The notes beneath the pieces were generated by a model. That model was not told where the DNA came from, ran no database searches, and saw only the letters and a list, made by a program, of their open reading frames with translations. A program made the position numbers and the translations under genes. DNA of 64,000 nt from an uncultured Bacteroidota bacterium. GTDB lineage: Bacteria; Bacteroidota; Bacteroidia; Bacteroidales; UBA932. This document shows, in pieces, positions 8,813 through 25,540 of this stretch (the first letter of the stretch is position 1; the number at the start of each line of letters is the position of its first letter). The stretch spans positions 83,775-147,774 of the forward strand of contig CALGSW010000010.1 of NCBI GenBank assembly GCA_937901965.1, written 5' to 3'.

Positions 8813-10423
8813 ATGGAAAACGATAATATCATAATTTCAAACAATTTTGGATGTGATGCAGAGACATTTGAAACTCTGATAGGTGTCCTGCCCGGTTTTG
8901 TGTACAGATGCAAAAATGATGCAGACTGGACTATGCTCTATATCAGCAGCCAGTGTTCAGATATTACCGGCTATTCACCGAATGATATTATCTACAATAA
9001 TAAAATATCTTTTAACGAAATTATTTCACAAGAATACAGAATTTATCTTCATGAAAGATGGCATGGTATATTGAAGATAAGAGGAGTTTTGAAAGAGGAG
9101 TACAAGATTACTACAAAAGATGGAAAAGTTAAGTGGGTGCTTGAACAGGGAAGGGGTGTATTTGATTCTGACGGTAATTTAAAATATTTGGACGGATATA
9201 TTACTGATATAACTTCGCGTAAAGAGGCAGAAGACAGACTTGTACAGAAGAATATTGAACTTCACCTGGCAAAGGAGAGGGCAGAAGAGAGTGAGAAACT
9301 GAAAACTGCTTTTCTTGCTAACCTCTCTCATGAAATAAGAACTCCCATGAATGCTATAATGGGATTTGCAGAGATGCTTAAAGAGAATGATCTTGAAATA
9401 AATCAGCGAGATAGTTTTATTGATATTATAAACAGAAGCGGCACTCATTTACTATCAATTATCAACGATATAATTGAAATGTCAAAAATTGAGTCAAAAC
9501 TTATAACACCAAATTATGAAGAGGTTGATATTGATCTCTTGTTAGATGTTGTATATAAGACAATGCTCGCAACAATAACTAATGATAAAAAGTTAGACTT
9601 AAGATATTTGTCTTCAGACAAACAACTTGAATACAAAATTAGCACAGACCCGGTTAAGTTAAGACAGATTATATCAAATCTTATATCAAATTCAATTAAA
9701 TACACAGATGATGGTTATGTTGAATTCTGGTATGAAATATCAGAATCAGACAAAGAAAAGGATATTGTTTTCTATGTAAAGGACACTGGTATTGGAATTG
9801 ATAAAGCACATCAGGATGAGATATTTGAAAGATTCAGAAGAATTGACAGTGATAAACAAACTATAGGAAGAGGCGGCTCCGGATTGGGGCTGGCTATATC
9901 AAAAGCCTATGTTGAGATGTTGGGAGGGGATATTGAAGTTGAATCAGAATATGGAAAAGGTTCTCTGTTTAAGTTTTCAATACCACTTATAATTTGTGCT
10001 AAAAATAAGAAAGCTAAGGATACAGAACTATTAGAAAAAGGATTTGAGATGAATAATCAAATGAGAATTCTGGTAGCTGAGGATGAGGACACGAATTATT
10101 TATACCTCTCAGCGCTGCTCTCCAAGTGCCATCACACTGTTCTGAGAGCTGTAAACGGACAAGAGGCTGTTGAGATTGTTAAGGAAGATAACAATCTGGA
10201 CCTTGTTCTTATGGATATAAAAATGCCTATACTAAATGGATATGATGCGCTTAGACTTATTAAAAAGTTAAAGCCCGCACTTCCAGTCGTAGCTCAGACT
10301 GCGTATGCTTTATCTGATGATGAACAAAATATTCGTGCAGCCGGTTTTGACGGCTATATCGCAAAGCCAATTATGAAAAATAAACTTGTATCAATACTGG
10401 AATCAATTACCAAACACTTATGA
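8813..10423 (+). CDS. Cytoplasmic PAS-domain hybrid histidine kinase/receiver
   Basis: PAS_3-like domain (PGFVYRCKND...WVLEQG), H-box SHEIRTPMN, N/G boxes (NSIKYT, DTGIGI, GSGLGLAI) and C-terminal REC (DLVLMDIKMP). No TM segment. Confidence 0.92.
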   Translation: MENDNIIISNNFGCDAETFETLIGVLPGFVYRCKNDADWTMLYISSQCSDITGYSPNDIIYNNKISFNEIISQEYRIYLHERWHGILKIRGVLKEEYKITTKDGKVKWVLEQGRGVFDSDGNLKYLDGYITDITSRKEAEDRLVQKNIELHLAKERAEESEKLKTAFLANLSHEIRTPMNAIMGFAEMLKENDLEINQRDSFIDIINRSGTHLLSIINDIIEMSKIESKLITPNYEEVDIDLLLDVVYKTMLATITNDKKLDLRYLSSDKQLEYKISTDPVKLRQIISNLISNSIKYTDDGYVEFWYEISESDKEKDIVFYVKDTGIGIDKAHQDEIFERFRRIDSDKQTIGRGGSGLGLAISKAYVEMLGGDIEVESEYGKGSLFKFSIPLIICAKNKKAKDTELLEKGFEMNNQMRILVAEDEDTNYLYLSALLSKCHHTVLRAVNGQEAVEIVKEDNNLDLVLMDIKMPILNGYDALRLIKKLKPALPVVAQTAYALSDDEQNIRAAGFDGYIAKPIMKNKLVSILESITKHL

Positions 10424-12852
10424 AATTTTCAAAACTCATTTTATTGCTCGTGATTATCTTCATGAACACTGCTCCTTTTGCATCTGTCAATGCACAGGAG
10501 AATGTTAAATTCCAAATCCCCCCTGCTGAAATATTAGAGCTGGCAGATTATGAGAGAGCTCCCTCTGTAATGACAGACTCTAAGAATGAATATTTCATTT
10601 TTACCTACAGAAATACATATAAAAGCTTAGATGAACTAAATCAACCTGAATTAAAGCTTGCCGGCCTCAGAATTAATCCCATTGTTAATATATCTTCAGC
10701 TGTTGTATATGTTAACAATATTAAAATCAGGAAATCTACCGAGTCTACGGAATATCAGCTTGAAGGTCTTCCATCAAATCCAAAAATTTCAAATATTCAA
10801 TTCTCACCGGATGAAAGAAAACTTCTTTTTACAAATACAACGTCAAATGGTGTGGAACTTTGGATTGCAAACCTGGATTCAAAAAATGCAATAAAGCTAT
10901 CAGACAAACTCCTTAATGCAAATATGGGCAATCCGGCAACTTGGTCAAGAGACGGAAGCTATGTTATTGCCCGAATTTTACCTACCGACAGAAAACCTCT
11001 GATTGATGAATCAAAAAATATCCCTGATGGACCGATTGTATCTGTAGGAGAGGGGAAAGTTTCGCAGAACAGAACATATCAGGATTTACTCAAAAACAAA
11101 AATGATGAGCAGAATTTTGAAACGATTGCAACGTCTGAATTATGGAGAATAAATATCTCCGATGGGAGCAGTCAACTTTTTCTGGGAGCTGATATTTATG
11201 CAGGTGAAAGCTTTTCACCTAACGGGGAGTATCTGATGATTACAACAATTCAAAAACCATTTTCTTATATAGTTCCCCTTAGCAGATTTCCCCAGGTTTC
11301 TAAAGTATATTCTAAAGAGGGAGAATTTATAAAAGAGGTTAATAGCGTACCATTGATAGAGATTCAACCAAAGGGATTCAGCTCTACCAGAGTGGGAAAA
11401 AGATCAATGGATTGGAGAGCAGATAAAGCTGCATCTCTGTACTTTGTTGAGGCTCTTGATGGAGGAGACCAATCTGTTGAAGTACCATTCAGAGATCTTT
11501 TGTTTACATGGGACGCCCCATTTAATACAGAACCGAATGAGATTGTTAAAATACCTCAGCGTTTTGCAGGTGTAATCTGGGGAGATGATGCTACTGCAGT
11601 ATTAAGAGATATGTGGTATGATACAAGGATGTCCTCTACATACCTTTTTACACCATCATTGTCAAATCAGGAACCAAAGTTAATTAACAAAAGAAACAGA
11701 CAGGATATTTACTCTGATCCCGGATCTTTTGAAACAAGAAGAAACCAATACGGAAGATATGTTCTGGCAATTGAAAATGGAAACTTACTCCTTATTGGAG
11801 AAGGGTACACTAAAAATGGACAATTCCCATTTATTGATGAATTCAATTTGAAAACACAAAAAACTAAGAGACTATACCAGTCAAACTATACGAATAAAAA
11901 AGAGGATATCCTTTCTGTGACTGATTTTAAAAAAGGGATTGCTTTAGTACGAATTCAATCAAAAACCGAGTATCCTAATTATTATTTTATAAACTTCCGC
12001 AAGAAGACAGATCCTCAGCAACTAACGAATTTTAATAATCCTTTCAAAAAACTTGAAAAAGTTCATAAAGAGGTTATAAAATATAAAAGGAGTGATGGTG
12101 TTATTCTTTCAGGGACTCTTTATATACCGGAAGGATTTGATAGAACAAAAGATAATAAATTACCATTGCTAATCTGGGCATATCCAGAAGAATTTAAGGA
12201 TGCTGCCTCTGCAAGTCAAAGCACACATAATCCTAATGAATTTACTGCTCCGTCATATGGATCTTTCGTTTACTGGGCAGCAAAAGGTTATGCTGTTCTG
12301 GATGATGCATCCTTCCCTATAATTGGTGAGGGAAATAAGGAGCCTAATGATACTTTTATACAGCAGTTGGTTGATAATGCAAAAGCAGCAATTGATGCTG
12401 TCGATTCACTTGGATATATTGACAGAACAAGAGTAGGTGTGGGCGGGCACTCATATGGTGCCTTCATGACGGCAAACCTTTTGACTCATTCAGATCTATT
12501 TGCTGTTGGTATTGCAAGAAGCGGCGCTTACAACAGAACCCTCACTCCATTTGGATTCCAGAATGAACAAAGAAATTACTGGGATGTCCCTGAAGTGTAT
12601 AATACTATGTCTCCATTTATGAATGCATCAAAGATGAAAACTCCATTACTTCTTGTTCATGGAGAGGCCGATAATAATCCGGGAACATTCACTCTTCAGA
12701 CTGAGCGATATTTTCAGGCTTTAAAGGGCCTTGGTGCTCCTGTCAGAATGGTAATTCTACCAAAGGAGTCGCATGGTTATTCAGCAAGAGAAAATATTCT
12801 TCATTTGCTTTGGGAACAGGATCAGTTTTTTGAGAAGTATCTTAAAAAGTAA
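10420..12852 (+). CDS. Secreted S9 family peptidase, S9D/glutamyl-endopeptidase-like
   Basis: Signal peptide; beta-propeller region; GGHSYGAFMTANLL catalytic Ser; ARSGAYNRTLTPFGFQ; HGEADNN (Asp); ESHGY (His). Confidence 0.9.
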   Translation: MKFSKLILLLVIIFMNTAPFASVNAQENVKFQIPPAEILELADYERAPSVMTDSKNEYFIFTYRNTYKSLDELNQPELKLAGLRINPIVNISSAVVYVNNIKIRKSTESTEYQLEGLPSNPKISNIQFSPDERKLLFTNTTSNGVELWIANLDSKNAIKLSDKLLNANMGNPATWSRDGSYVIARILPTDRKPLIDESKNIPDGPIVSVGEGKVSQNRTYQDLLKNKNDEQNFETIATSELWRINISDGSSQLFLGADIYAGESFSPNGEYLMITTIQKPFSYIVPLSRFPQVSKVYSKEGEFIKEVNSVPLIEIQPKGFSSTRVGKRSMDWRADKAASLYFVEALDGGDQSVEVPFRDLLFTWDAPFNTEPNEIVKIPQRFAGVIWGDDATAVLRDMWYDTRMSSTYLFTPSLSNQEPKLINKRNRQDIYSDPGSFETRRNQYGRYVLAIENGNLLLIGEGYTKNGQFPFIDEFNLKTQKTKRLYQSNYTNKKEDILSVTDFKKGIALVRIQSKTEYPNYYFINFRKKTDPQQLTNFNNPFKKLEKVHKEVIKYKRSDGVILSGTLYIPEGFDRTKDNKLPLLIWAYPEEFKDAASASQSTHNPNEFTAPSYGSFVYWAAKGYAVLDDASFPIIGEGNKEPNDTFIQQLVDNAKAAIDAVDSLGYIDRTRVGVGGHSYGAFMTANLLTHSDLFAVGIARSGAYNRTLTPFGFQNEQRNYWDVPEVYNTMSPFMNASKMKTPLLLVHGEADNNPGTFTLQTERYFQALKGLGAPVRMVILPKESHGYSARENILHLLWEQDQFFEKYLKK

Positions 12853-12866
12853 AGTGCTAAAAAATG

Positions 12867-12899
12867 AAGGGTGATATTTAATGTCACCCTTTATTTTAT
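12867..12899 (+). terminator. Rho-independent terminator after the S9 peptidase gene
   Basis: AAGGGTGATAT/ATGTCACCCTT stem followed by TATTTTAT. Confidence 0.8.
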
Positions 12900-12907
12900 T
12901 ACTTTTG
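12900..12907 (+). promoter_or_regulatory. -7 promoter box for the uORF-TBDR unit
   Basis: TACTTTTG (TAnnTTTG) right after the terminator and 14 nt before the ATG at 12922. Confidence 0.65.
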
Positions 12908-12921
12908 CGCTCTGCTGATTT

Positions 12922-13272
12922 ATGGAACAGATTAGAAAAAGTTTTCTAAAATATCTTGTCTTAATATCGTTTATCACTTATTATAGTGGTGCTACGATGT
13001 TTTATCATGCACACATTCAGGGAGACGGTAAGATTGTCCATTCTCATTTTTATCTTACAGGTGATGCCTCAGCTCCATCCCACTCCCATTCAAATTCATC
13101 TCTTTCATTACTAGCTCTATTACTTTCGTCATTAAATTTTATAGTTTCATCTCTGTTATTACAGTCTGTATACAATAAAATACAATCAATTATCAGTATC
13201 AGTGATCAGCGAAAGCCATCATTATACTTTAATTTACAAATTCAATCAAGGGCACCTCCGGCAGTTAGTTAG
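12922..13272 (+). CDS. His-rich membrane-type leader ORF with a C-terminal RAPP motif (candidate arrest peptide, analogous to DUF2946/CruR)
   Basis: Two hydrophobic segments flank three HxH motifs; the protein ends QSRAPPAVS; it has its own promoter box and lies 46 nt upstream of a TBDR gene. Confidence 0.75.
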   Translation: MEQIRKSFLKYLVLISFITYYSGATMFYHAHIQGDGKIVHSHFYLTGDASAPSHSHSNSSLSLLALLLSSLNFIVSSLLLQSVYNKIQSIISISDQRKPSLYFNLQIQSRAPPAVS

Positions 13273-13318
13273 CTTGCTATAATTAAATTCTTCAACTAAC
13301 TAATTAACATATATTTAA

Positions 13319-15622
13319 ATGAATTTTAAAAATATTTATTTAACAATAATCATATTGTTATGCTATGGTGTTGTAAAATCACAGCCAAATTCAAACAAAG
13401 ACAAGATATCTTCAATAGCGGGTCACATTATTGAAAAAGAGACAGGAGAGCATATACCATTTGCCACAATAAAGATAGAAGAACTGCGAATAAACTTTTC
13501 AGCAGATGCATCGGGACATTTTCACAGAAACAATATTCCGTCAGGAAGATATAAATTCAGTGCATCTGCGCTAGGATACTTAATAAATGATACTATTATA
13601 GAAATTCAACCAGGCAGATTATCAACAATAAACTTTGAAATGAGCCAGAGCTCGTTTAATGTTGATGAAGTTGTTGTTACTGCAACGAGAAATGAATCCA
13701 AGAGAAAAGAATCCCCTTCTGTTATAAACGTTATAGGTAAGAGGTTGTTTGAACAATCAGCTTCAACGAACCTGAGTCAGGTTCTAAATTTTCAGCCGGG
13801 TGTAAGAGTTGAGGTTAGCTGCCAGAATTGTGCTGTCACTCAGGTTAGAATTAATGGTCTTGAAGGTCAATATTCTCAGATTTTACTTGACAGCAGACCT
13901 GTTTTCAGCTCACTGGCAGCTGTATACGGTATAGAACAACTTCCTGCAAGTATGATTGAAAGAGTAGAGGTTTTAAGGGGCGGTGGTTCTGCTGTATTTG
14001 GCTCAAATGCTATTGGAGGGGTTATTAATATAATAACAAAAGAACCAATTAAAAACACTCTCTCAATTTCAAATCAAACCGGTTTAACTGGTAAAGGTTC
14101 AATGGATTATACAACTTCATTAAATAGTTCGTATGTTACTAGTGATTTTAATACAGGTGTTTATCTATTTGGAATGATAAGAGACAGATCTCCTTATGAC
14201 AGAGATGGAGATGGATTTAGCGACATACCTGTTCTGGATGCTGAAACTATCGGTTTTAGAGGATATCATAAGTTTGCTCCAAATTCAAAACTAACATTGG
14301 AGTATCATCATATGAACGAGTTCAGAAGAGGTGGAGATTCTCTTTCTAAACCTCCGCATGAGGTGACCGTTGCAGAGCAGGTTAAACACAAAATTAATGG
14401 AGGTGCAGCAAAATTTGATGTAAACTCAAAAGATTATAAACATAAGATTTCAATATTTACTGCAGCTCAAAAAATTGGAAGAGACAGTTATTTTGGAACG
14501 AATAAAGATTATAACGCATACGGAAGAACTGATGATATTACAATCTCAGCAGGTACACAATACTCAACTCAAATAAAGAGACTAATATTTATGCCCTCGG
14601 AATTTACGGCAGGGTTTGAGTATAATTATAATTTTCTTAAAGATGCAATGCTGGGATATGATCGGATCTTAGAACAAGAAGCAATAACATTTGGTGGTTA
14701 TATACAGAATGAGTGGAAAAGTGAAAATGTTAGTGTCTTAATAGGTGCCAGGCTGGATAAAAATAATCATGTTAGTAAACCAATATTTTCTCCCAGACTC
14801 AATTTAAGGTATACTCCAAAGGAGAACCTTATTTTTAGGGGTAGTTTCTCCAGCGGTTACAGAGCTCCTCAAGCCTATAGTGAAGATCTCCACGTAGAAG
14901 CAGTTGGTGGATATGTAACTTTAATAGTAATTGATCCATTGCTAAAACCAGAATATTCAAATAGCTTAAGCGCATCAGCCGACTACTCCTTCTTTGCCGG
15001 GCCGATTCAGATGAATCTATTGGCTGAAGTTTTTCATACTAGTTTAAAGGATGTCTTTGCTCTTGAGGCAATTGGCAGAGATGAGGCGGGAAATATCTTA
15101 CTACTTAGAAAAAACGAAAAAGGGGCATTAATATCTGGTGCTAATATTGAATTAAAAGCAAATTATGGTAATTCTCTTTCTGCACAGGCCGGTTTCACAG
15201 TTCAGTCCAGCAGATATAAAGAGCTTTATAAATGGTCAGAAGATCCTAGCCTAACAGCTGATAAGCGCATGCATAAAACTCCTGGAAAATACGGTTATCT
15301 GACAGTTTCCTGGAACCCTTATACTCGTTTTAATACTTCATTCACATGTGTTTATACTGGTAGTATGTTAATGCCGCATTTTGCCGGTTATATTGACAAG
15401 GACAGACTACAAGTAACGCCTTCATTTCTTGATCTAGGTATAAAATTTTCATACGATATAAATATAAGTGGCGACCATATTATTCAGTTAAACGCAGGAA
15501 TAAAAAACTTTTTGGACTCTTACCAAACAGATTTAGACAGAGGTGAATTCAGAGATGCAGGATATGTATATGGACCGGGTAATCCCAGAACCTTTTTTGC
15601 AGGAATTAAAATTGATTTATAA
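13319..15622 (+). CDS. TonB-dependent outer-membrane receptor (CirA-like, not SusC type)
   Basis: Signal peptide; carboxypeptidase-regulatory-like N-domain (IIEKETGEHIPFATI); TonB box EVVVTATR; plug motif ERVEVLRGGGSAVFGSNAIGGVINIIT; SCQNC in the plug; C-terminal RTFFAGIKIDL beta-signal. Confidence 0.93.
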   Translation: MNFKNIYLTIIILLCYGVVKSQPNSNKDKISSIAGHIIEKETGEHIPFATIKIEELRINFSADASGHFHRNNIPSGRYKFSASALGYLINDTIIEIQPGRLSTINFEMSQSSFNVDEVVVTATRNESKRKESPSVINVIGKRLFEQSASTNLSQVLNFQPGVRVEVSCQNCAVTQVRINGLEGQYSQILLDSRPVFSSLAAVYGIEQLPASMIERVEVLRGGGSAVFGSNAIGGVINIITKEPIKNTLSISNQTGLTGKGSMDYTTSLNSSYVTSDFNTGVYLFGMIRDRSPYDRDGDGFSDIPVLDAETIGFRGYHKFAPNSKLTLEYHHMNEFRRGGDSLSKPPHEVTVAEQVKHKINGGAAKFDVNSKDYKHKISIFTAAQKIGRDSYFGTNKDYNAYGRTDDITISAGTQYSTQIKRLIFMPSEFTAGFEYNYNFLKDAMLGYDRILEQEAITFGGYIQNEWKSENVSVLIGARLDKNNHVSKPIFSPRLNLRYTPKENLIFRGSFSSGYRAPQAYSEDLHVEAVGGYVTLIVIDPLLKPEYSNSLSASADYSFFAGPIQMNLLAEVFHTSLKDVFALEAIGRDEAGNILLLRKNEKGALISGANIELKANYGNSLSAQAGFTVQSSRYKELYKWSEDPSLTADKRMHKTPGKYGYLTVSWNPYTRFNTSFTCVYTGSMLMPHFAGYIDKDRLQVTPSFLDLGIKFSYDINISGDHIIQLNAGIKNFLDSYQTDLDRGEFRDAGYVYGPGNPRTFFAGIKIDL

Positions 15623-16363
15623 GTCTAATGCTCTGCTCATTGCATCATATCCCATTTTAAATATTATATCCACTTTTTTAAGATCAAAAGTTTTAAATTG
15701 CATAGCGCTCTCAACTTCAACAAGGATATCACACATCTTTTTATCCTCCAGAGTATTTGCTCTGAACATAAAGTGATATGAACGCTCTGCAATTCCAACA
15801 ATATTCTTTGAGTATTTTTCAGTGACGAGGGGGCTTGCGTTGACGCCAATAACTTTATCGCATTCACCCCTTATTACTGAAACCGGGAAATTTTTAAAGA
15901 TCCCGCCGTCTGCATAAAGCTTACCGTTAATCTCAACAGGGTTAAATATAACCGGAACGCATGCAGATGCAGTAATTTTTTTTATTAACTCTCCTTCAGA
16001 GAATACTTCATACCTGCCATCATCAAGATTTGTAGCAACAACTTTTACAGGTATTTTTAACTCCTCAAATGTTTTTACAGAAATACTCGATTTAAGAAGT
16101 TTAATAAAACCTGTAGGTTTGAAGAGTCCTTTATTGGGAATATTTAATTCTACGAAGTAATTAAAATCCTTATCGTTGAATAGTTCAACAATTTTTTCCG
16201 GAGAATTTCCACCAGCATAAAGAGCAGCTACAATTGCTCCTGCACTTGTACCTGCAATAATATCCGGAATTATGCCTCTCTCTTCAAGAGCTTTGATTGC
16301 TCCCGCATGAGCAAATCCTTTTACACCACCTCCAGATAAAACAAGCCCTAAAGGATATTTCAT
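15617..16363 (-). CDS. Patatin-like phospholipase
   Basis: SGGGVKG (GxGxxG), GTSAG nucleophile elbow and DGG motif. Confidence 0.93.
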   Translation of the reverse strand: MKYPLGLVLSGGGVKGFAHAGAIKALEERGIIPDIIAGTSAGAIVAALYAGGNSPEKIVELFNDKDFNYFVELNIPNKGLFKPTGFIKLLKSSISVKTFEELKIPVKVVATNLDDGRYEVFSEGELIKKITASACVPVIFNPVEINGKLYADGGIFKNFPVSVIRGECDKVIGVNASPLVTEKYSKNIVGIAERSYHFMFRANTLEDKKMCDILVEVESAMQFKTFDLKKVDIIFKMGYDAMSRALDL

Positions 16364-16366
16364 TGC

Positions 16367-17623
16367 TTAGCTGATAGTAAAGAAAAATCTGGCTCCTTTG
16401 CCTATTTGTGATTCAGCCCACACACTGCCACCATGCCGCTCAATAACTCTTTTTACTGTTGATAAACCAACGCCGGTTCCACTGAAATCATCACCATGAT
16501 ACCTGACAAATGGTTTAAATAATTCATCTGCTTTATCTGAATCAAAGCCCGCTCCATTATCTTCAACACAAAAAACCACACTTCCCAGACTCTCTTCTGA
16601 ATAAAATTTAATTACCGGAGAAACAGTTTTTGAACTGTATTTAACAGCATTCCCCAACATATTATCTAATACAATACGGATTAAATTTGGGTCCGCATTT
16701 GCTTTGAGCCCGTCTTGTATTTCAATAGTTGGTTTAACCTCCGAGTATCTCAGTAAAAGATTATCTATTACATCTCTTGCCATGCTTGAAAGATTAACAT
16801 CTTCTCTTCTCAGCTCGGTTGTTCCGGATTGTGAAAATGCTAGCAAATCTTTGATGAGTTGTGCCATCTCCTCTGCCGAATCCTTTATGTATCCCATAAA
16901 CTCCTTATCATCTGAAGACATTTTACTGTCTGGATTATCAAGCATTGCAGATGCAAACCCCATTATTACAGAGAGGGGTGATCGCAGATCATGGGAAACA
17001 GAACGCGAAAATGATTCCAAATCACTGTTTGCCTGCTTAAGTTCAGTGTTAGATCTCTCTAGTTGTAACTTTATATCTGTAAGTTCATTGTTTCTTTTTG
17101 TTGCGGTCTCATAAACAGAGATTAGAAGATCAATAATTTGTCTTTTGGAAGATGTTATGGAGTATTCGTTACCTCTGAATTTTAATCTGATAACGTCATT
17201 ATCTCTTATCTCTGTTGCAATCTCTGCATTTATTAAAAGATGTTCGATTCTTTCCAGTATCTCTCTCTCCTCATAGGGCTTTGTAACAAAATTATCAGCT
17301 CCACACTGCAGCCCTTTGATAATATCGTCAGGATCTTGAAGTGCAGTGAGTAGCATTACCGGAATATCCTTTAATTTATCATCAGCTTTTATTTTACTGC
17401 AATAACCAAAACCATTCATTCCAGGCATTATGACATCACTTATAATTAATGCCGGCTTTGAAAGACAAATTGCTTCATAAGCATCTGATGCATTGTAAAA
17501 GATTTTGTATTTTATTTCGTTCTTCTTAAACAGATATTCAAGTCGTTTTGCCTGGACCAATGAATCTTCAGTCGCAACAATATGTCTGTCTCCAAGTAAT
17601 CTTGATATACTGCTATTGCTCAT
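16367..17623 (-). CDS. Receiver-histidine kinase hybrid (REC-HisKA-HATPase), putative output of the chemosensory operon
   Basis: REC (IISDVIMP, FVTKP), H-box SHDLRSPL, NAVKYS, DNGAGFD, GTGVGLSTV. Confidence 0.9.
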   Translation of the reverse strand: MSNSSISRLLGDRHIVATEDSLVQAKRLEYLFKKNEIKYKIFYNASDAYEAICLSKPALIISDVIMPGMNGFGYCSKIKADDKLKDIPVMLLTALQDPDDIIKGLQCGADNFVTKPYEEREILERIEHLLINAEIATEIRDNDVIRLKFRGNEYSITSSKRQIIDLLISVYETATKRNNELTDIKLQLERSNTELKQANSDLESFSRSVSHDLRSPLSVIMGFASAMLDNPDSKMSSDDKEFMGYIKDSAEEMAQLIKDLLAFSQSGTTELRREDVNLSSMARDVIDNLLLRYSEVKPTIEIQDGLKANADPNLIRIVLDNMLGNAVKYSSKTVSPVIKFYSEESLGSVVFCVEDNGAGFDSDKADELFKPFVRYHGDDFSGTGVGLSTVKRVIERHGGSVWAESQIGKGARFFFTIS

Positions 17624-18693
17624 TTTATATAAATATGATTTAGTTTTCTTGCAATTTCATCTGGATTGAGTACAGCACAGGCAGCTCCAAGTTTAAGAGC
17701 TTCTCCGGGCATACCATAAATTAAAGCAGAGCTGATATCCTGAATAAATGTAAAAGCACCGGTGTCTTTCATGAATTTTAATCCTGATGCTCCATCTCGT
17801 CCCATCCCCGACAGAATTATACCAACAGAGTTTTCACCGTAATATTTTGCAATACTTTTAAAAAGAATATCAACAGATGGTTTGTGAAGTGAATCAATAT
17901 CATTCCCGTTCAATATTGAAATAACTCCATTTTCAATAATCATGTGAGAATCGGGTGGGGGTATATAAATTTTACCGGATAAAGGCTTCTCTCCATTAAT
18001 CGCTATTACTGCTTCAATATTTGAAAAGGTATTAATCCATGTTGTAAATCCCTGTATAAAATTTTGGTCAATGTGTTGTATTAAAAGAATGGGTAACGGG
18101 AAATTTGGAGAGATTTCTGTAAGTAATGTTTTTAAAGCCTCGGGACCACCGGCAGAAGCACCTATTGCAACAATCCTGGCATTCACATTTATTTTACAGG
18201 TTTCGCCAACTGTTGTCATTGATTTTTTTAAATCAAGATTGTATGCTTTACCATTATTGCTCCTTCTTACAACCTTGACTTCTGCCATTAATTTAATTGA
18301 GTTTATGTATTTTACTGCTGATGATTCAAAAGTTTCATGACCTGGACCATGAGGTTTTGGCAGTACCATTACAGCACCTGCCTCTAGCTCACGAATGGCT
18401 GTAAGCACATCATTATCACGATATATGCTACTAACAATTATGACAGGTGCCGGGCATAAACTCATAATTCTTTTTGTAGCTTCAATCCCATCCATTACGG
18501 GCATATTAATATCCATGCTTACTACATCCGGCTTGTGCTTCATAGCCATTTCCACTGCCTCTTTCCCATCTGTTGCCGTAGCAACTACATCAATCATTGG
18601 ATCTTCAGACAGGATACCGGCGAGTAACCTTCTACCCACAGAAGAGTCGTCTGCAATTAATACCCTTATAGGTGATCTGATCTCCTTTTTCAT
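17620..18693 (-). CDS. cheB: Chemotaxis response regulator/methylesterase CheB
   Basis: N-terminal REC (SMDINMP); catalytic GASAGGP (Ser), IQHI (His), KPSVD and ILSGMGRDGA (Asp); YGMPGEA. Confidence 0.95.
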   Translation of the reverse strand: MKKEIRSPIRVLIADDSSVGRRLLAGILSEDPMIDVVATATDGKEAVEMAMKHKPDVVSMDINMPVMDGIEATKRIMSLCPAPVIIVSSIYRDNDVLTAIRELEAGAVMVLPKPHGPGHETFESSAVKYINSIKLMAEVKVVRRSNNGKAYNLDLKKSMTTVGETCKINVNARIVAIGASAGGPEALKTLLTEISPNFPLPILLIQHIDQNFIQGFTTWINTFSNIEAVIAINGEKPLSGKIYIPPPDSHMIIENGVISILNGNDIDSLHKPSVDILFKSIAKYYGENSVGIILSGMGRDGASGLKFMKDTGAFTFIQDISSALIYGMPGEALKLGAACAVLNPDEIARKLNHIYIK

Positions 18694-18703
18694 CCCTAAA
18701 ATG

Positions 18704-20833
18704 TTAAATCAATCTTCTTATAGTATCTGTAAGGTTACTCTTCTCAAAACTTCCTTTAACTATATATGCATTTGCACCTGCATCTAACCCTCTTTGCATA
18801 TCTTTAGGAGACTCAAGTGTTGTTACCAAAATTACAGGTATTTCTGAATATCTGCTATCTCCACGGATTTTAGTTGTTAGTTCAAAACCATTCATATTTG
18901 GCATCTCAATGTCCGTTACCACAGCATCATAAGTTGTTTCCTGAAGCATTTTATATGCTTCAACACCATCAACAGCAACATCTGTTTCGTAACCTGCATT
19001 TTCCACAATACTTTTAAGCATGCTCCTTACAGTTATTGAGTCCTCAACGACCAGGATTCTCTGTTTTTGATCCAAAGTAGTTGTAATTTTGGAGGTGTCA
19101 GTGAAACCTCCAAAATCTCCTCCGGTAGCCCCTTCAATAAGTTCATTGACGTTAACAACAGGGATCAGCACTCCATTGCCCACCATTGTAACGCCTGTAA
19201 TTTTTTTTATACCTTTCAACTGTTTCCCAAGTGGTTTGATAATACCTTCAACCTCTTCAATAATTTTATCAACTTTAAAGGCCATCCTTTTATGATTAGA
19301 ATTAAGAATGAGTGCAGGTTTAAATTTTGAATCGTTTTGAACAGTTTCAGTAAGTCCCAGAGATTTACCTAAATCCATAAGTCCTACGTAATCACCGGAA
19401 ATAAGTACAGATGTCCTGTGACCTGAGTTAATTATTTCACTATCAACTACTCCAATAACTTTTTCAATAAAATTTGATGGGATAAGAAATTGCTGATTGA
19501 AACTTGTAACTAATAAACCTCTGAACGTGGCAATCGTCTGAGGTATTTTAATTATAAACTTAGTCCCTTTACCATACTCAGAGTCAACAGAAACTGTTCC
19601 GCCAAGATTGCATATTTTCTCAGAAACAATTGCCATCCCAAGCCCTCTGCCGGAAATTTCAGTAATCATATCGCTGGATGAAACTCCAGAAGAAAATATC
19701 AGGTTCATCTTTTCATGTGAAGAAAGAAGTTCAGCCCGCTCGTGATCAATAATACCATTCTTGATTGCAGATTTTATAACCTTATCAATTTTTATTCCTC
19801 CTCCATCATCACAAACTGATATTGATAGTTTTGCATCAGCATCCTTTGATATTACTATTGAGATTTTGCCAGTAGTAGACTTCCCTGAGAGAGATCTCTC
19901 TTTGGGACTCTCTATTCCATGATCTGCACAATTCCTGATTAAATGGATAAGAGGGTCTTTCAACTCCTCAAGTATACGTTTATCAATTTCATAGAAATCT
20001 CCTTTAATCTCAACCTCAATCTCTTTTCCATTATCTCTAGTCAGGTCTCTGACAACTCTTGGAACAATATTTAAAATAGTTGAAAAAGGCAAAAGAAGTG
20101 TTGACTTTACATCAATTATTATATCATCAACCATCCTGTTTGCAACATGAATAAATCTGGTTAAATCTCCATAAAGATATTCCAGTTTATCATCTTTAAT
20201 TCTGACTCTGATTTCTTCCAGCTCACTTTTATAAAAGGCTAAAGTTGTTTTAAAAGCTATGAAATCTTCACTTTGGGCCAATATTTTATTTAGTTTCTGA
20301 GATGAAATCCTAATAGTTTCGCTTTCTGTTTCAACCTTTTTTGGGACTTCAAGGATTTGGGTATTCTCTTTTCCTGATGTTTTTTGTTTTGTTATTTGTG
20401 ATTCATTTTCTTCTTTTTTTACAACTTCTTTGTGGATGAATTCAAGATTCTTGATTAATAAAGGAAGATTTGGAAGCTTTCTTTCTGTTCCGCTCTCTTT
20501 TATATTTGATAGCATAAACCGTAATGAATCTACTGATTTATGCATAACATCAAACAAAGAGTTAAAGAGACTTCCTTCACCATTCTTAAGGGAGCTCATC
20601 ACGTTTTCCATAAGCATACAGATCTTTTCTGTATCAGTAAGGTTAACAGCTCTAGCAGCACCTTTTAAAGAATGGGTCTCTCTATAAACTTTTTCAAGAA
20701 CTGATTTATCCGGATTTTCACTTCCATTTTCCAGTACAATTAAACCTTCGTCAATAGAAGAAAGATGTTCTTCAGCCTCAATTTCAAAATCCTGAAGCAG
20801 TTCCCGTAAAAGCTCATCCTGGTTAATTGCCAT
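18704..20833 (-). CDS. cheA: Hybrid CheA (Hpt-dimerisation-HATPase-CheW-REC), WspE-like
   Basis: Hpt YRETHSLKGAA, HLIRNCADHGIE, DDGGGI, SGRGLGMAIV, CheW domain and C-terminal REC (VVTDIEMP). Confidence 0.95.
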   Translation of the reverse strand: MAINQDELLRELLQDFEIEAEEHLSSIDEGLIVLENGSENPDKSVLEKVYRETHSLKGAARAVNLTDTEKICMLMENVMSSLKNGEGSLFNSLFDVMHKSVDSLRFMLSNIKESGTERKLPNLPLLIKNLEFIHKEVVKKEENESQITKQKTSGKENTQILEVPKKVETESETIRISSQKLNKILAQSEDFIAFKTTLAFYKSELEEIRVRIKDDKLEYLYGDLTRFIHVANRMVDDIIIDVKSTLLLPFSTILNIVPRVVRDLTRDNGKEIEVEIKGDFYEIDKRILEELKDPLIHLIRNCADHGIESPKERSLSGKSTTGKISIVISKDADAKLSISVCDDGGGIKIDKVIKSAIKNGIIDHERAELLSSHEKMNLIFSSGVSSSDMITEISGRGLGMAIVSEKICNLGGTVSVDSEYGKGTKFIIKIPQTIATFRGLLVTSFNQQFLIPSNFIEKVIGVVDSEIINSGHRTSVLISGDYVGLMDLGKSLGLTETVQNDSKFKPALILNSNHKRMAFKVDKIIEEVEGIIKPLGKQLKGIKKITGVTMVGNGVLIPVVNVNELIEGATGGDFGGFTDTSKITTTLDQKQRILVVEDSITVRSMLKSIVENAGYETDVAVDGVEAYKMLQETTYDAVVTDIEMPNMNGFELTTKIRGDSRYSEIPVILVTTLESPKDMQRGLDAGANAYIVKGSFEKSNLTDTIRRLI

Positions 20834-20838
20834 TTGAA

Positions 20839-22341
20839 TTATAAGTTGTATTTAATTATAATAGTCTTCAAATTTCGTCCGAGCTGATGGATTTTTTGAG
20901 CAGTGTCCTGAGTGTGATTAATTCCAACAACATTTTGTTCGCTAGCCCGTTTAATATTTTCCATCGCAGGGACAATCTGATCCATACCTGCCATTTGCTG
21001 CCTGGTAGAGGATGAAATTTGAATTGCGGCCTCAACTGCATCTTCAACATTGTCGGCTAATATATCTATAACCTCACCACTCTCTTTAACTCTCCTGATT
21101 CCCTCCTCAACACTTTTAGCCCCTTGATCTGTAACGCCAACTGTAGAATTCACCGACTTGTTAATTTCATTCAAAATTTCTTTAACTTGTTGAGTCGCTC
21201 TTTTTGACTGGTCTGCCAACGAGCGTATCTCCTGAGCCACAATAGTGAATCCCCTTCCATGTTCCCCTGCTTTCGCTGCTTCAATTGCTGCATTCACAGC
21301 AAGTAAATTTGACTGATCAGCAATATCCGCAACAGTAGAAGTGATTTCAGCAATTGTCCTGTTTTGCTCTGATAATTTCACAACAGTATCTGAAATGAGA
21401 TGCATTTGATTATCAATATGCTGAATAGCAGATGTAAGCTTCTTTATGGAGTCTCTGCCTTTATCTGCTGAATCAGAGGCTTTTTGAGAACTCTCCATCA
21501 GAGATTGAGCTTTCTGATTTGATACATTTGCAGTCTGCCTTACCTCCTCAATTGTTGTAGTTGTTTCAGTAACAGCAGTTGCAGTCTCAGCTGCACCTGC
21601 TGAAATCTCTGTTACAGCGCTCAAAATATCAGATGATGCATTTCCCAGAATTTCTACTCCAGCTTTAATCTCGGCTGTTATTTTTCTAACTATCCTTAAA
21701 GTCCAGATAGCAATTGCAATAACCAAGAAAACTAAAATGCTGCCTAAAACAAGTAGTTGCCATACTACAATATTTTCAGCTTTCTCGCTAAGAGCATGAG
21801 TTTTAGCCTTCATTTCTAACAAATTTAACTCAATCTGTATTGACTTTTCACGAATTCTCTCATATAAAAGATCTTGCTCCTCTGAAACAACTTTTTTTGC
21901 ATCATCTGTTCTACCTTCAGATATCAGTGTCATCATGATTTTCCGATTTTCAACGTATTTTTCAACGTCAATTTTCAAATCACTCATTAAAATTTCCTGA
22001 TCTGGATATGCATTTAACATACTATCAAGCCCGTTAGTTTTTTTCAGTATATCTATATGTTTCTGTTCAATTTTTTGCTTAAAGTCAATATTGTTAAGTT
22101 TTTCAGGATAAAATAGAGCTTCAAGGCTTAGTGCCCTAAGTCTGTTTTCGTCTGCTCTTAAACCTGTCAATTCATATGCAAGCGTGTCAAGAAGTGAATT
22201 TTCTTTTACAACATTGCTCATTCGTCGGTGATTTGTGTAAGAGATTATGGAGAAGAGTATTGTAGCAACAACTATTACAACAAACCCAATAATCATCTTG
22301 CCTCTGGTTCTAAGTCTTAAGAAGTTTTCCATATTATTCAA
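20839..22341 (-). CDS. Transmembrane methyl-accepting chemotaxis protein
   Basis: TM1 at about aa 16-35, helical periplasmic domain, TM2 at about aa 191-215; hairpin tip QSNLLAVNAAIEAAKAGEHGRGFTIVAQEIRSLA. Confidence 0.95.
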   Translation of the reverse strand: MNNMENFLRLRTRGKMIIGFVVIVVATILFSIISYTNHRRMSNVVKENSLLDTLAYELTGLRADENRLRALSLEALFYPEKLNNIDFKQKIEQKHIDILKKTNGLDSMLNAYPDQEILMSDLKIDVEKYVENRKIMMTLISEGRTDDAKKVVSEEQDLLYERIREKSIQIELNLLEMKAKTHALSEKAENIVVWQLLVLGSILVFLVIAIAIWTLRIVRKITAEIKAGVEILGNASSDILSAVTEISAGAAETATAVTETTTTIEEVRQTANVSNQKAQSLMESSQKASDSADKGRDSIKKLTSAIQHIDNQMHLISDTVVKLSEQNRTIAEITSTVADIADQSNLLAVNAAIEAAKAGEHGRGFTIVAQEIRSLADQSKRATQQVKEILNEINKSVNSTVGVTDQGAKSVEEGIRRVKESGEVIDILADNVEDAVEAAIQISSSTRQQMAGMDQIVPAMENIKRASEQNVVGINHTQDTAQKIHQLGRNLKTIIIKYNL

Positions 22342-22849
22342 TAATTATTTTTTTATTTTCAGTTAAAGCTTTCCCATTTAAAATCAATGCACCTGAATCA
22401 CAAATCCCGGAGATAAACTCTTTATAAAGGCTATTGTAATTATCAGGTACATCTGAAATTGCCGATATTAATTTTTCAGAAAATCCCAGTATTTCATCCG
22501 CCACTATTCCAAATTCAATATCACCATTTGAAATGATAATTAATTTATTTAGCTCAGAAAGTCCATATTCTTTAGATGATAAAAAACGGTTAATATTTAC
22601 TGCGGAATAAATAATCCCCCTGATATTTGCAACACCCACAACAAAGTCTGGAGTCCCCGGAATTGTAGTAAAGGAGCCAACTCTTACGACCTCTTTAATC
22701 CACTTATTCTCTATTGCATATGTTTCTTTTACTACCCTGAATACTAAGTAATTGACGCTATCAAAATGATCTTTAATAATAATTTTTTTAGCATTCTGTT
22801 TAGCCCTGCTCTTTAATAAAATTTTATCCCTGTTCATTTTGTGGTTCAA
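22334..22849 (-). CDS. cheW: CheW adaptor (WspD-like position)
   Basis: LVFRV...YAI...IKEV, IPGTPDFVVGVANIRG, FGIVADEILG. The start may be the ATG at 22837. Confidence 0.9.
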   Translation of the reverse strand: MNHKMNRDKILLKSRAKQNAKKIIIKDHFDSVNYLVFRVVKETYAIENKWIKEVVRVGSFTTIPGTPDFVVGVANIRGIIYSAVNINRFLSSKEYGLSELNKLIIISNGDIEFGIVADEILGFSEKLISAISDVPDNYNSLYKEFISGICDSGALILNGKALTENKKIIIE

Positions 22850-24290
22850 TAAGTTTAATTACCATCTGTTTTAATCGCTCCTTGTTCATACCACCGGTAA
22901 CCTTGATAATATCATCATCTTTAATTTTTTCAGTAATCTGAATTACATTTCTGTAGTGAATTGATGCAGCCCTCTTATTCCCCTCATTATTTAAAATATT
23001 ACCTAGCATAAGGTGAGAAAGCAGATGCTCGGGATTTAAGTACAAACCTTTTCTAAACATTTGTTTAGCCTCTTCAATCTCTTTCAGTTCTGTAAGAACT
23101 GTTCCATAAAGGTAAAAAATATCGTCTGATGAAATATTCTTTGATATTAATTTATCCAACACAAAAATTGACTCCTTGTACTTTCCTGTATTTGCATAAC
23201 TTCTTGCCAGGAAGCTTAATAAAGTACTGTCTTCATTACCTTTTTCAACCTCCTTTAAAGCAATATCTATACATTTTGAATATTTTCCTTCCGAATATAG
23301 TAGCTCAAGTTCACTATTTAGAAAAGATGTATCAATTACCTCTGATTTAATGAATTTTTCAACAGATTTTTGTTGTCTCGGCAGTTTTACAGAAACATGT
23401 GAATTATGCAAAGGTTCTTTTAAAATATGGAAATTGGTTCTCTTAATATTTATGTTGCTGTTTTTTGAATAAAAAACGCCATCATCAAAGTATGACTTTG
23501 TAAAATGGCCAAAAAAAGTGTCGTTTAGCTCTACCTGACTTGTTATCAGCCATCCACCCTCGTTTAATATGTTAAAAAAGCGCTGAGATATATTCTTAAT
23601 TAATTCTTGATTCAGATACATTAAAACATTCCTGCAGAAAATAACATCAAGATACTTCTCTTCTGGGTCCTCGCCAGGAAATGAATCAACAGCAAGATTC
23701 AAATATTCAAATTGTACCAGCTCTTTAACTGAATCAGAAATTTGATAATTATCCCCAATTTTTAGGAAAAATTTTTTTATATAATTTTCAGGAATTTCTC
23801 TGAACGACCACGGAGTGTATAATCCTTTTTTAGCCTTAGCGATTACATTTGGATTTAAATCTGTTCCAACTATTTTCACACTGCCTTTTGGGATATAGGG
23901 GAACATCTCTAAAAGTATCATAGCCAGAGTATACGGTTCCTCTCCGGAGCTGCAGCCAGCACTCCATATCCTAATCACATCTCCCTTTTTCTTTTTAATA
24001 AGTTCAGGAATAATTGTTTTACAAAACATATTGATTGCAGGCTTTTCCCTGAAAAAATATGTTTCATTAACTGTAAGATGCGAAGCAAGCACTTTTCTCT
24101 CATCTGGTGTGAACTTTCCCCCAAATAGTGTTACTTTTGAGTTAAAAGAGTCAATGTCAGCATATCCAAGTGTTTGGACGGCCTCTCTTAAATGCCTTGA
24201 GAATTCCTCAACGCGGTTTGCCTGATAGGCCAGCCCCATTGATGATTCAATTAGTTTAGCCAGATTATGTATTGATCCTTCACACTTCAT
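22824..24290 (-). CDS. cheR: CheR methyltransferase with C-terminal TPRs (WspC-like)
   Basis: LTVNETYFFRE, IWSAGCSSGEEPY, GTDLN, DVIFCRNVLMY; C-terminal TPR repeats (ARSYANTG, FRKGLYLNPEH). Confidence 0.95.
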   Translation of the reverse strand: MKCEGSIHNLAKLIESSMGLAYQANRVEEFSRHLREAVQTLGYADIDSFNSKVTLFGGKFTPDERKVLASHLTVNETYFFREKPAINMFCKTIIPELIKKKKGDVIRIWSAGCSSGEEPYTLAMILLEMFPYIPKGSVKIVGTDLNPNVIAKAKKGLYTPWSFREIPENYIKKFFLKIGDNYQISDSVKELVQFEYLNLAVDSFPGEDPEEKYLDVIFCRNVLMYLNQELIKNISQRFFNILNEGGWLITSQVELNDTFFGHFTKSYFDDGVFYSKNSNINIKRTNFHILKEPLHNSHVSVKLPRQQKSVEKFIKSEVIDTSFLNSELELLYSEGKYSKCIDIALKEVEKGNEDSTLLSFLARSYANTGKYKESIFVLDKLISKNISSDDIFYLYGTVLTELKEIEEAKQMFRKGLYLNPEHLLSHLMLGNILNNEGNKRAASIHYRNVIQITEKIKDDDIIKVTGGMNKERLKQMVIKLIEPQNEQG

Positions 24291-24741
24291 TTGAATATAG
24301 GTTTCTTACAGTCTCCTCTTCCTCCTTACTAAGTAAATTCTCAGCGTTGTAGATATAGTAAATACAATCTGATTTAGTAAAAAATTCAAGTTCACTCATT
24401 CCCGGGAGTATATCCTTGTAAAATTTAATATCAGACATATTAATTACCTCTAGACCTTCAATACAATCTGCAATTAATGCAACCTTTATACTTTTGAAGG
24501 AGATTATTAAAAAGAAGCAAGAAGAGGTCAGATCAGTTTCAGGCAATGAAAATCTTCTTCTTAACGAAACAACCGGGATAACTTCACCATGTAAATTAAT
24601 TAATCCCATTACATTGCCTTCCGGATTGTTATATGGAATAATTTCCTGAGCAAGTATAACTCTGTTGATCATATCAACAGGGAAAGAAAACTTAAGATCA
24701 GATATGGTAATTAAAAGTACGTTAAGTTGATCTTGATTCAT
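24280..24741 (-). CDS. cheW: CheW adaptor (WspB-like)
   Basis: GLINLHGEVIPVVSLRRRF, VALIADCIEG. Start moved to the ATG at 24741; the upstream extension would run into the divergent gene. Confidence 0.88.
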   Translation of the reverse strand: MNQDQLNVLLITISDLKFSFPVDMINRVILAQEIIPYNNPEGNVMGLINLHGEVIPVVSLRRRFSLPETDLTSSCFFLIISFKSIKVALIADCIEGLEVINMSDIKFYKDILPGMSELEFFTKSDCIYYIYNAENLLSKEEEETVRNLYSNEV

Positions 24742-24791
24742 ATTGTTCTTAAATACATCGGTAAATATAAACAAAAGATTTGTAAACTTTT

Positions 24792-24813
24792 CTTTATAAC
24801 TAATGTTATAAAG
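24792..24813. promoter_or_regulatory. Perfect inverted repeat, candidate operator between the che operon and hemerythrin-LuxR
   Basis: CTTTATAAC-TAAT-GTTATAAAG: 9-bp arms with a 4-nt spacer in a divergent intergenic region. Confidence 0.45.
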
Positions 24814-24814
24814 C

Positions 24815-25540
24815 ATGTTAATGGATTTAAAGATGTCTGAATTTTTTACTGTTGAGAGGAAGCTCTCATCAATAGTTGAAGAGAATTTTAAAATTGTAAG
24901 AATACTTAAAAGATTTGGGATAATGCCCGGATTTGGGGAAAAGAGTGTAAAAGATGTTTGCGCTGCCTACACTATCTCTCCTCAATTATTCCTTACTATT
25001 GCAAACATGACCACTTTTAATGACTATGTACCGGATATTGAGTATGTTAAACAACTGCCAACGCTTCAGCTTGTAAATTATCTAAAAGCATCACATAGTG
25101 AGTTTATTATACGGGATATACCTTTAGTAGAGAATTCAATAAATGAAATTGCAGCCAGCAAAGATTTCTCAGACTCACATTCTTCTGTATTTGTGAATTT
25201 CTTTAAAGAATACAAGTCAGAACTTTTATCTCACTTTGATTATGAAGACAGGACAGTGTTCCCATATATTTCAAGCATTACTGAAGGGAAATCTTATCCA
25301 GGATACTCAATTGAGAAGTTTGAAGAAAATCATACTAATATAGAATCAAAGATCAGTGACTTAAAAAATATACTCCTTAAGTATTTTCCATCGGTCAAAC
25401 CTCATCCTCAACTATATGATTTGATTGAGAAGCTCTATATTCTCCAGGCTGAATTTGAAAATCATGCAAATCTTGAAGACAGAATCCTTGTCCCTCATGT
25501 AGAGTATCTTGAGCTAATTTCAAAATCAGAAAAGAGATGA
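24815..25540 (+). CDS. Hemerythrin-like/RIC (YtfE/ScdA-like) di-iron protein
   Basis: His/Glu pattern ASHSEF, SHFDYED, ENHTNIE, ENHANLED; N-terminal ScdA_N-like segment without the CC motif. The true start may be 24833. Confidence 0.8.
   Translation: MLMDLKMSEFFTVERKLSSIVEENFKIVRILKRFGIMPGFGEKSVKDVCAAYTISPQLFLTIANMTTFNDYVPDIEYVKQLPTLQLVNYLKASHSEFIIRDIPLVENSINEIAASKDFSDSHSSVFVNFFKEYKSELLSHFDYEDRTVFPYISSITEGKSYPGYSIEKFEENHTNIESKISDLKNILLKYFPSVKPHPQLYDLIEKLYILQAEFENHANLEDRILVPHVEYLELISKSEKR

Follow-up and report, generated by a model that had tools for sequence, protein, structure and literature searches.

Force-sensing arrest peptides such as SecM, MifM, ApdA, and ApdP monitor Sec/YidC and regulate sec/yidC genes. 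To our knowledge, metal-sensing arrest leaders have been demonstrated for copper only, with Cys motifs only, and in Proteobacteria only (CruR and CutF). We describe a small open reading frame (ORF), here called the leader (protein P0001), that precedes a gene for a TonB-dependent receptor (TBDR) in an uncultured Bacteroidota bacterium (Bacteroidales, UBA932; assembly GCA_937901965.1, contig CALGSW010000010.1, 83,775-147,774, forward strand). The whole stretch analyzed, referred to as the window, is 64,000 nucleotides (nt) long, and its position 1 is position 83,775 of the contig. We propose, with a probability of roughly 0.6, that the leader is a cis-acting arrest leader of the RAPP type that controls translation of the receptor, resembles CruR and CutF in its logic, and is tuned by metal.

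The 2 copper systems set the terms for this proposal. CruR (Bp2923, a DUF2946 protein of Bordetella pertussis) is a RAPP-bearing upstream ORF (uORF) in which copper, acting through CxxC, relieves arrest, so that Rho terminates transcription ahead of bfrG, a TBDR gene (Roy et al. 2022, PMC9426467); a first-pass annotation of the window had correctly described CruR as a RAPP uORF with CxxC that regulates a downstream TBDR in response to copper. Arrest at the RAPP of CruR is confirmed by toeprint (PMC12992588). CutF, a DUF2946 protein of Rhodobacter capsulatus, senses periplasmic copper during its export (bioRxiv 10.1101/2025.02.05.636593). Two surveys place these leaders in a wider setting. Öztürk et al. 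2023 listed 5,334 “CutF-like” proteins, defined by a length under 150 residues, PP among the last 15 residues at the C-terminus, an N-terminal hydrophobic signal, and a same-strand neighbor less than 1 kb away; 19% (40% normalized) are from Bacteroidota, their motifs are Cys, His, or mixed, and the His-only clusters adjoin HupE/UreJ, not a TBDR or a resistance-nodulation-division (RND) pump (PMC9973294). The Chiba laboratory (EMBO J 2025) reported RAPP/RGPP uORFs upstream of TBDRs throughout Gram-negative bacteria (PMC12992588).

Leader family and conserved motifs

The first-pass annotation had marked at this locus an ORF with its own -7 box and an upstream terminator, six His, 2 hydrophobic segments, a RAPP motif, and a 46-nt gap before a TBDR gene, and all of these are borne out. 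The features are as follows.

12861-12897, plus strand: terminator-like hairpin and T run (17-pair stem, then ATTACTTTTG), insulating the leader from the upstream S9-peptidase gene
12900-12907, plus strand: -7 promoter box TACTTTTG, matching the Bacteroidota consensus TAnnTTTG and starting 22 nt 5′ of the leader ATG
12922-13272, plus strand: leader ORF, 116 residues (P0001), candidate RAPP-type arrest peptide
12943-13005, plus strand: N-terminal hydrophobic helix, residues 8-28, predicted to serve as a signal anchor or as a signal peptide; F17, Y20, and F27 are conserved
13006-13089, plus strand: putative sensor module H29-x-H31/H40-S-H42/H54-x-H56, with invariant columns, modeled by AlphaFold2 (AF2) and predicted to face the periplasm
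13096-13161, plus strand: second hydrophobic helix (TM2, the presumed second transmembrane helix), residues 59-80, with a Kyte-Doolittle value of 2.1 in a 19-residue window and a helix in the AF2 model
13162-13248, plus strand: spacer of variable sequence and fixed length, which together with TM2 makes up the 56-residue “ruler” from H54 to R110
13249-13260, plus strand: R110-A-P-P113 arrest motif (codons AGG GCA CCT CCG), predicted stall site
13263-13276, plus strand: 5′ arm of a hairpin (last 2 codons, stop, and 4 nt), within the footprint of a ribosome stalled at RAPP
13293-13305, plus strand: 3′ arm of the hairpin, ending 14 nt upstream of the receptor AUG
13319-15622, plus strand: TBDR (P0002), 767 residues, with CarbopepD_reg at the N-terminus, Plug, and barrel

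P0001 has six His in total, arranged as H29-A-H31, H40-S-H42, and H54-S-H56, and zero Cys. Its second hydrophobic stretch is separated from R110 by a 29-residue spacer, and RAPP is followed by A-V-S and then a TAG stop, 3 codons on. The gap to the TBDR, 46 nt in length, is very AT-rich.

P0001 matched no family in Pfam or NCBIfam, and a word-indexed homologue search with the leader protein alone recovered only itself. An exhaustive HMMER search found 314 homologous representative clusters (50% identity level, E ≤ 1e-3), nearly all of 105-135 residues. Their source names all read “hypothetical protein,” and they come from Alistipes, Rikenellaceae, Tannerellaceae, Paludibacter, Proteiniphilum, and Muribaculaceae. 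Of 401 genomes sampled evenly over the phylum, 14 have the leader, one copy each; the carriers include four others that belong to the order of the window, five in different orders of that class, and four within a single family in another class. Among genomes of closer relatives of the window it is present in 15 of 61.

Of the 150 best representatives, 139 have R-x-P-P at a distance of 1-13 residues from the C-terminus (RAPP 94, RGPP 36, RPPP 3, RSPP 3), the exceptions being mostly frameshifted or truncated predictions, or RAPG or KAPP. In a 101-sequence alignment, H29, H31, H40, H42, H56, R110, P112, and P113 are invariant and no other column is, with F17, Y20, F27, S41, and H54 conserved at 90% or more. 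The co-conservation of RAPP/RGPP, HxH pairs, and a downstream TBDR, proposed earlier as a check on the annotation, holds across Bacteroidales and Marinilabiliales. Position x is Ala in 70% of leaders and Gly in 26%, and the residue preceding Arg is Leu in 78%; residues -14 to -2 relative to RxPP show no conservation in the family, and the tails after the motif vary in sequence.

Spacing is kept where sequence is not. The first and second HxH are 11 residues apart in 116 of 132 leaders, and the third HxH stands 55-58 residues ahead of Arg in 113 of 132; the stretch between is unconserved and so serves as a ruler of length. In 93 of the 132 the second hydrophobic segment is clear, and in 26 it is weak or absent. 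The first-pass annotation had placed this segment at the exit of the ribosome tunnel during arrest. For P0001 the geometry agrees, with the end of TM2 ~32 residues from the P site; as a constant of the family it does not hold, the conserved distance being that from the third HxH to Arg.

The arrest motif is otherwise kept out of the proteome. The source genome (2.31 Mb, 40% GC) has no RAPP, RGPP, RSPP, or RPPP in 1768 ORFs of at least 150 residues, against ~11 expected from composition, and the leader is its sole credible gene with a RAPP-like motif. Avoidance of Pro-Pro stall motifs in this genome is strong and proteome-wide. Counted singly in the same ORFs, RAPP, RGPP, RSPP, RPPP, RAGP, KAPP, and AGPP each occur 0 times, with 1.6-5.7 of each expected, and AAPP is found once. 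Taken together, the invariant motifs across a large family and the avoidance of RAPP put the features of the leader far beyond chance. Across Bacteroidota, RAPP and RGPP are depleted (frequency bias 0.14 and 0.17), and these are the variants reported to arrest most strongly (PMC12992588 and its source data).

An AF2 model of P0001 built with the family alignment has a mean pLDDT (predicted local distance difference test score) of 83. It consists of a helix at residues 2-25 (pLDDT above 90), a beta-hairpin (26-33/36-43) bearing H29, H31, H40, and H42, a loop that holds H54 and H56, and a helix at 58-95, and it places RAPP within a low-confidence, disordered tail. A Foldseek search of this model against the PDB returned nothing under E = 2.7. 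In 93% of 235 leaders the N-terminal stretch carries a net positive charge, and by the positive-inside rule the N-terminus would thus remain inside and the His cluster would face the periplasm.

Operon placement and predicted stall-to-start coupling

From a -7 box that starts 22 nt ahead of the leader ATG, one expects the 5′ untranslated region to be very short. This placement recurs: in 30 of 48 loci the box starts 12-42 nt 5′ of the ATG, and in 35 of 48 within 100 nt, on a genome background of 0.06 per 100 nt, and only 2 of 48 leader–receptor spacers contain one. The promoter therefore directly fronts the leader, and the receptor has none of its own. In 15 related whole-genome loci, the gene after the leader encodes the same type of TBDR in 14 and an RND adaptor in 1. 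On named contigs, leader and TBDR form a self-contained pair amid unrelated neighborhoods.

The RNA between the 2 genes is predicted to link the stall site to the receptor start. In the window fold, 13263-13276 pairs with 13293-13305, and the pairing probability of the 5′ arm is 0.82 versus 0.47 in shuffles (rank 3 of 40). The hairpin recurs in four congeners. In one locus of the genus (L005), the stem has another sequence and the stop lies 10 codons past RAPP; even so, the 5′ arm starts 3 nt past the final Pro codon. The hairpin is thus in register with the stall site rather than with the stop, and it adds a plausible output mechanism that the first-pass annotation lacked. Across 47 loci, pairing of the 12 nt that follow RxPP with downstream sequence exceeds that in dinucleotide shuffles: 18 loci are at rank 2 of 40 or better (binomial p = 2e-9), as are 15 of 43 once close relatives are removed (p = 2e-7). 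In 21 of 24 strong cases, the pairing partner falls between -20 and +30 nt relative to the receptor start, regardless of spacer length (p = 3e-4).

We modeled the stall by forcing a 28-nt ribosome footprint unpaired, its P site set at the first of the Pro codons, and computed how much ensemble energy it takes to open the receptor start from -18 to +9. The computed cost in the window falls from 7.95 to 3.63 kcal/mol, against 8.09 for a footprint placed 40 nt upstream. Across 44 loci, the stall footprint yields a gain above 1 kcal/mol in 16 and a loss in 4 (Wilcoxon p = 0.005); the corresponding figures for the control footprint are 3 and 4. In silico, stall and start appear to be coupled in the genus of the window and in about 1/3 of the leader family, and another output is likely elsewhere in the family.

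From these features we propose the following sequence of events. Leader and TBDR would be transcribed as a two-gene operon from the -7 box at 12900. The nascent chain would be targeted to the inner membrane in an N-in orientation, its six-His cluster facing the periplasm, and the ribosome would arrest at R110-A-P-P113; as judged from CruR and ApdP, Pro112 would then occupy the P site and Pro113 the A site. At arrest, the third HxH would stand ~58 residues from the peptidyl-transferase center, having just emerged on the periplasmic side of the translocon, and TM2 of P0001 would have reached the tunnel exit or the translocon. During the stall, the ribosome would cover 13263-13272 in the 5′ arm; the 3′ arm abuts the receptor initiation region, and the start would be open and the receptor translated. 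Upon release, termination would follow 3 codons later, the hairpin would reform, and receptor translation would drop. A divalent metal (Ni, Co, Zn, or Cu) in the His cluster would set the length of the stall, metal binding being most plausibly the means by which the six-His module tunes its lifetime. Following the logic expected for an uptake receptor, metal-induced folding would pull on the chain and free the arrest, turning the receptor OFF in metal plenty, as with CruR. Metal binding, the pulling force, and the choice of metal are all steps that we infer.

A more specific version of this proposal we hold tentatively, as possible rather than probable. In this version the leader would be the first His-based, non-copper nascent-chain metal sensor, with a six-His beta-hairpin that folds around Ni, Co, or Zn at the translocon's periplasmic face, exactly 56 residues from RAPP; the folding force, or its absence, would set how long the mRNA hairpin stays open, and one switch would serve both uptake and CzcCBA efflux. 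If true, this would amount to a translational metal switch for Shine-Dalgarno-less Bacteroidota, including the gut genera Alistipes, Bacteroides, Phocaeicola, and Prevotella.

The receptor plug carries C168-Q-N-C171 (13820-13831), invariant in a 14-sequence alignment, and 2 plug Cys three residues apart could form a thiophilic metal site or a disulfide. A PDB sequence search with the TBDR returned matches at the level of the plug alone, to CirA, BtuB, and PhuR, which makes a substrate assignment impossible. The plug motif marks an uncharacterized TBDR clade without a close solved structure. In a TBDR-centered search blind to the leader, 80 homologous receptors were gathered with the TBDR alignment, and 34 have an upstream small ORF with at least 2 HxH and a C-terminal R-x-P-P/G ending. 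The leader-bearing receptors are concentrated at 40% identity or more, in Bacteroidales and Marinilabiliales, and some receptors of the same clade lack any leader. The extended plug motif NC[QGS]NCGF.QVR[IM]NGL[ED]G is kept in 73 of these 80 (loci L027-L104) across Bacteroidota, leader or not.

The same receptor clade is preceded by leaders of other composition. Prevotella receptors (L048 155-520, L050 3358-3723) follow a His/Cys-rich RAPP leader, HHH..CYDCAHHIHH..CALC..TRAPP; of the Alistipes receptors (L055 3598-3921; L039 3593-3925), one has a leader with HTH, CPIC, and RAPP, and another has RAPP without a His/Cys cluster. Sensor modules appear to be exchangeable, with the stall module joined now to one and now to another. 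Before otherwise leaderless receptors lie short or degenerate ORFs (L086 3736-3876; L029 3766-3918) that end in ...SRAPPYLY (46 residues, no His cluster) or contain ...GEAPPV..., and these may be remnants of decayed leaders.

The leader family also heads efflux operons. On named contigs, among other loci, it precedes CzcB/CzcA/OEP-type RND genes (L022 6001-12311; L026 6001-11959; L009 1366-1734 and 3-977, minus strand), with spacers of 139-438 nt. The efflux-linked leader in L022 adjoins a divergent NikR_C regulator gene and a second TBDR, and the NikR_C neighbor gives a weak hint of nickel or cobalt.

Around the window's pair, the upstream S9-peptidase ORF spans 10420-12852. Downstream, the TBDR adjoins a convergent gene, so the operon ends at the TBDR, and a SusD partner is absent at the locus. 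The minus strand at 15617-24816 holds a tightly packed run of ORFs converging on the TBDR. Within the genus (loci L003-L007), the leader–TBDR pair is always 3′ of one and the same gene for an S9-family peptidase; its neighborhoods in other genera are unrelated, as though the pair were a mobile two-gene module.

Counterevidence and alternative explanations

Several observations weigh against a metal-tuned arrest leader with translational output. The window hairpin is AU-rich, and the fold of the whole sequence is ordinary (z = -0.87, with 40 of 200 shuffles folding equally well). RNAalifold on five same-genus sequences, among which L005 is misaligned, finds compensatory change in 2 pairs, that is, minimal covariation. 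Computed stall-dependent opening occurs in only about 1/3 of loci. TM2 is weak or absent in ~20% of leaders. The six His could sense pH or heme, not free metal, and the confident AF2 fold is also compatible with a stable protein that has its own function. Since the family heads both uptake TBDR operons and CzcCBA-type efflux operons, which need opposite responses to metal, the direction of control cannot be read from sequence. In the literature, we found no paper describing or testing the leader family and no experiment on any member.

The alternative that survives best keeps the arrest leader and changes its output, and we regard it as unlikely. The stall would block Rho-dependent or other premature termination in the 3′ end of the leader and the spacer, release would lead to polarity, and the hairpin would be secondary or irrelevant. 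CruR works in this manner (PMC9426467); the 3′ half of the leader and the spacer are richer in C than in G (17-28 versus 9-13 per 100 nt); and the roughly 2/3 of loci in which the stall does not open the start in the computation, together with the many spacers of 100-270 nt, would be accommodated. In the window, however, the spacer is merely 46 nt and very AT-rich, and the pairing of stall site and receptor start is position-specific and statistically enriched.

It is improbable, in our view, that the ORF encodes a stable small inner-membrane metal-binding protein that acts in trans with the receptor or pump, as a partner in periplasmic metal hand-off or signaling, with RAPP as a mere pause or a cytoplasmic motif. 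The confident helical hairpin with its beta-hairpin His cluster (pLDDT 83), the conserved aromatics of the first hydrophobic helix, the length of 116 residues, and the zero Cys would all suit such a protein. The C-terminus would not: R-x-P-P is invariant, with x limited to Ala or Gly, it always stands 13 residues or fewer from the stop ahead of variable tails, and it is otherwise banned from the proteome. Neither would the genetics, in which the leader always opens the operon right after the promoter and is joined to two unrelated classes of downstream gene, nor a ruler of fixed 56 residues over unconserved sequence. The 2 roles are not mutually exclusive.

Quite improbable, too, is an arrest leader that answers to a signal other than metal, be it Sec/YidC insertion capacity, as for MifM and SecM, or periplasmic pH or heme read through His. 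Targeting of the N-terminus to the membrane and a TM2 ~32 residues from the P site resemble classical force-sensing arrest peptides, His titrates near pH 6, and the receptor plug is akin to those of heme, B12, and catecholate receptors. On the other hand, the downstream genes are never sec or yidC; they encode the CxxC-plug TBDR or CzcCBA-type RND pumps, with one locus beside NikR. Six invariant His in HxH pairs are a typical ligand set for transition metals, and the homologous logic in CruR and CutF is metal-driven. Finally, a chance ORF without function, for which small size and the want of a Pfam or NCBIfam match would speak and nothing more, is refuted by 314 homologous clusters, invariant residues, and conserved synteny, and we effectively discard it.

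Comparison with known leaders

As a metal-tuned arrest leader, the element would extend a known design in 3 directions: a His sensor on a predicted folded membrane hairpin, a setting in Bacteroidota without Shine-Dalgarno pairing, and abundant gut genera. It would give a function to several hundred “hypothetical protein” clusters and a regulatory clue to the uncharacterized CxxC-plug TBDR clade. The eight invariant residues, the ruler of 56 residues, and the short hairpin offer testable handles, and the uptake-linked and efflux-linked copies offer a natural comparison.

The family was anticipated by published surveys, and it works like CruR and CutF without being DUF2946. P0001 has the features by which Öztürk et al. 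2023 defined CutF-like proteins: it is 116 residues long, has PP at 112-113 of 116 and a predicted N-terminal hydrophobic helix, and lies 46 nt upstream of the TBDR. Family members, among them NLX80570.1, WP_028727253.1, WP_118464004.1, and WP_136498457.1, are in the uORF_List_RAPP source file of the EMBO J 2025 study, upstream of a TBDR or an RND adaptor (PMC12992588). With CutF-like or RAPP uORFs of Bacteroidota, His-only clusters among them, already surveyed and these members present in source data, the first-pass annotation went too far in calling the leader the best candidate for an undescribed system. The EMBO J 2025 class and the leader share the C-terminal position of the motif and an N-terminal localization signal; in that study, the rows of the family are labeled “hypothetical protein,” the His motifs, ruler, promoter, and RNA pairing are undescribed, and no Bacteroidota member was tested (PMC12992588).

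Other RAPP proteins accompany the family in the same data. Source file 24 of PMC12992588 includes a “DUF6769 family protein” that ends in RAPP and lies upstream of an RND adaptor, and a His/Cys-rich RAPP protein (MRAKKH...HHHHSNG...CGCNGH...GGLRAPPVL) that shares a genome with a leader-family member. Bacteroidales genomes can thus hold several distinct RAPP leaders.

The profiles of both DUF families leave the leader outside. The DUF2946 profile (PF11162) gave no match for P0001 at E ≤ 1, and 3 of 101 family members reached E ~0.02, far under the gathering score. We reject DUF2946 membership, with no profile match and with His in place of the Cys motif; the earlier word “analogue” is therefore apt. 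The profile of DUF6769 (PF20558), another Bacteroidota RAPP leader family present in the EMBO J 2025 list, likewise did not match P0001, and 1 of 101 leader-family members appeared at E = 0.035.

Like SecM, MifM, ApdA, and ApdP, the leader has a core of the RAPP/RAGP type, and it is predicted to share with them a pulling force supplied by targeting and a stall that unmasks a downstream start. It differs from them in its invariant, predicted ligand-binding His cluster and in the transport genes downstream.

The resemblance to CruR is closer. Both are small uORFs with an exported or membrane-targeted product (predicted for the leader) and with RAPP 3 residues before the stop, first in the operon and followed by a TBDR, and both keep a fixed distance from ligand motif to RAPP, which differs in value (45 +/- 2 residues in CruR; 56 in the leader, 55-58 in 113 of 132). 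CruR belongs to PF11162 and binds copper through CxxC, whereas the leader is unrelated in sequence and has three HxH pairs and no Cys. CruR, with its cleavable signal peptide, is predicted to be disordered; the leader has two predicted helices and a beta-hairpin. The output of CruR is Rho-dependent termination over a 162-nt GC-rich spacer, whereas in the leader a predicted hairpin joins stall site and receptor start across 46 AT-rich nt.

With CutF, the leader shares a co-translationally exported chain that reads periplasmic metal and a C-terminal Pro-rich stall that melts a stem-loop shielding the start of the next gene, both predicted for the leader. In CutF, copper prolongs the stall via CxxxC and turns a detoxifying oxidase ON; in the leader, His pairs precede a TBDR or an RND pump. 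The stem-loop of CutF shields a Shine-Dalgarno sequence. Bacteroidota do without initiation driven by such sequences, and the leader would instead shield an unstructured AU-rich start region. In its attachment to both uptake and efflux genes, the leader family mirrors the opposite logics of CruR and CutF.

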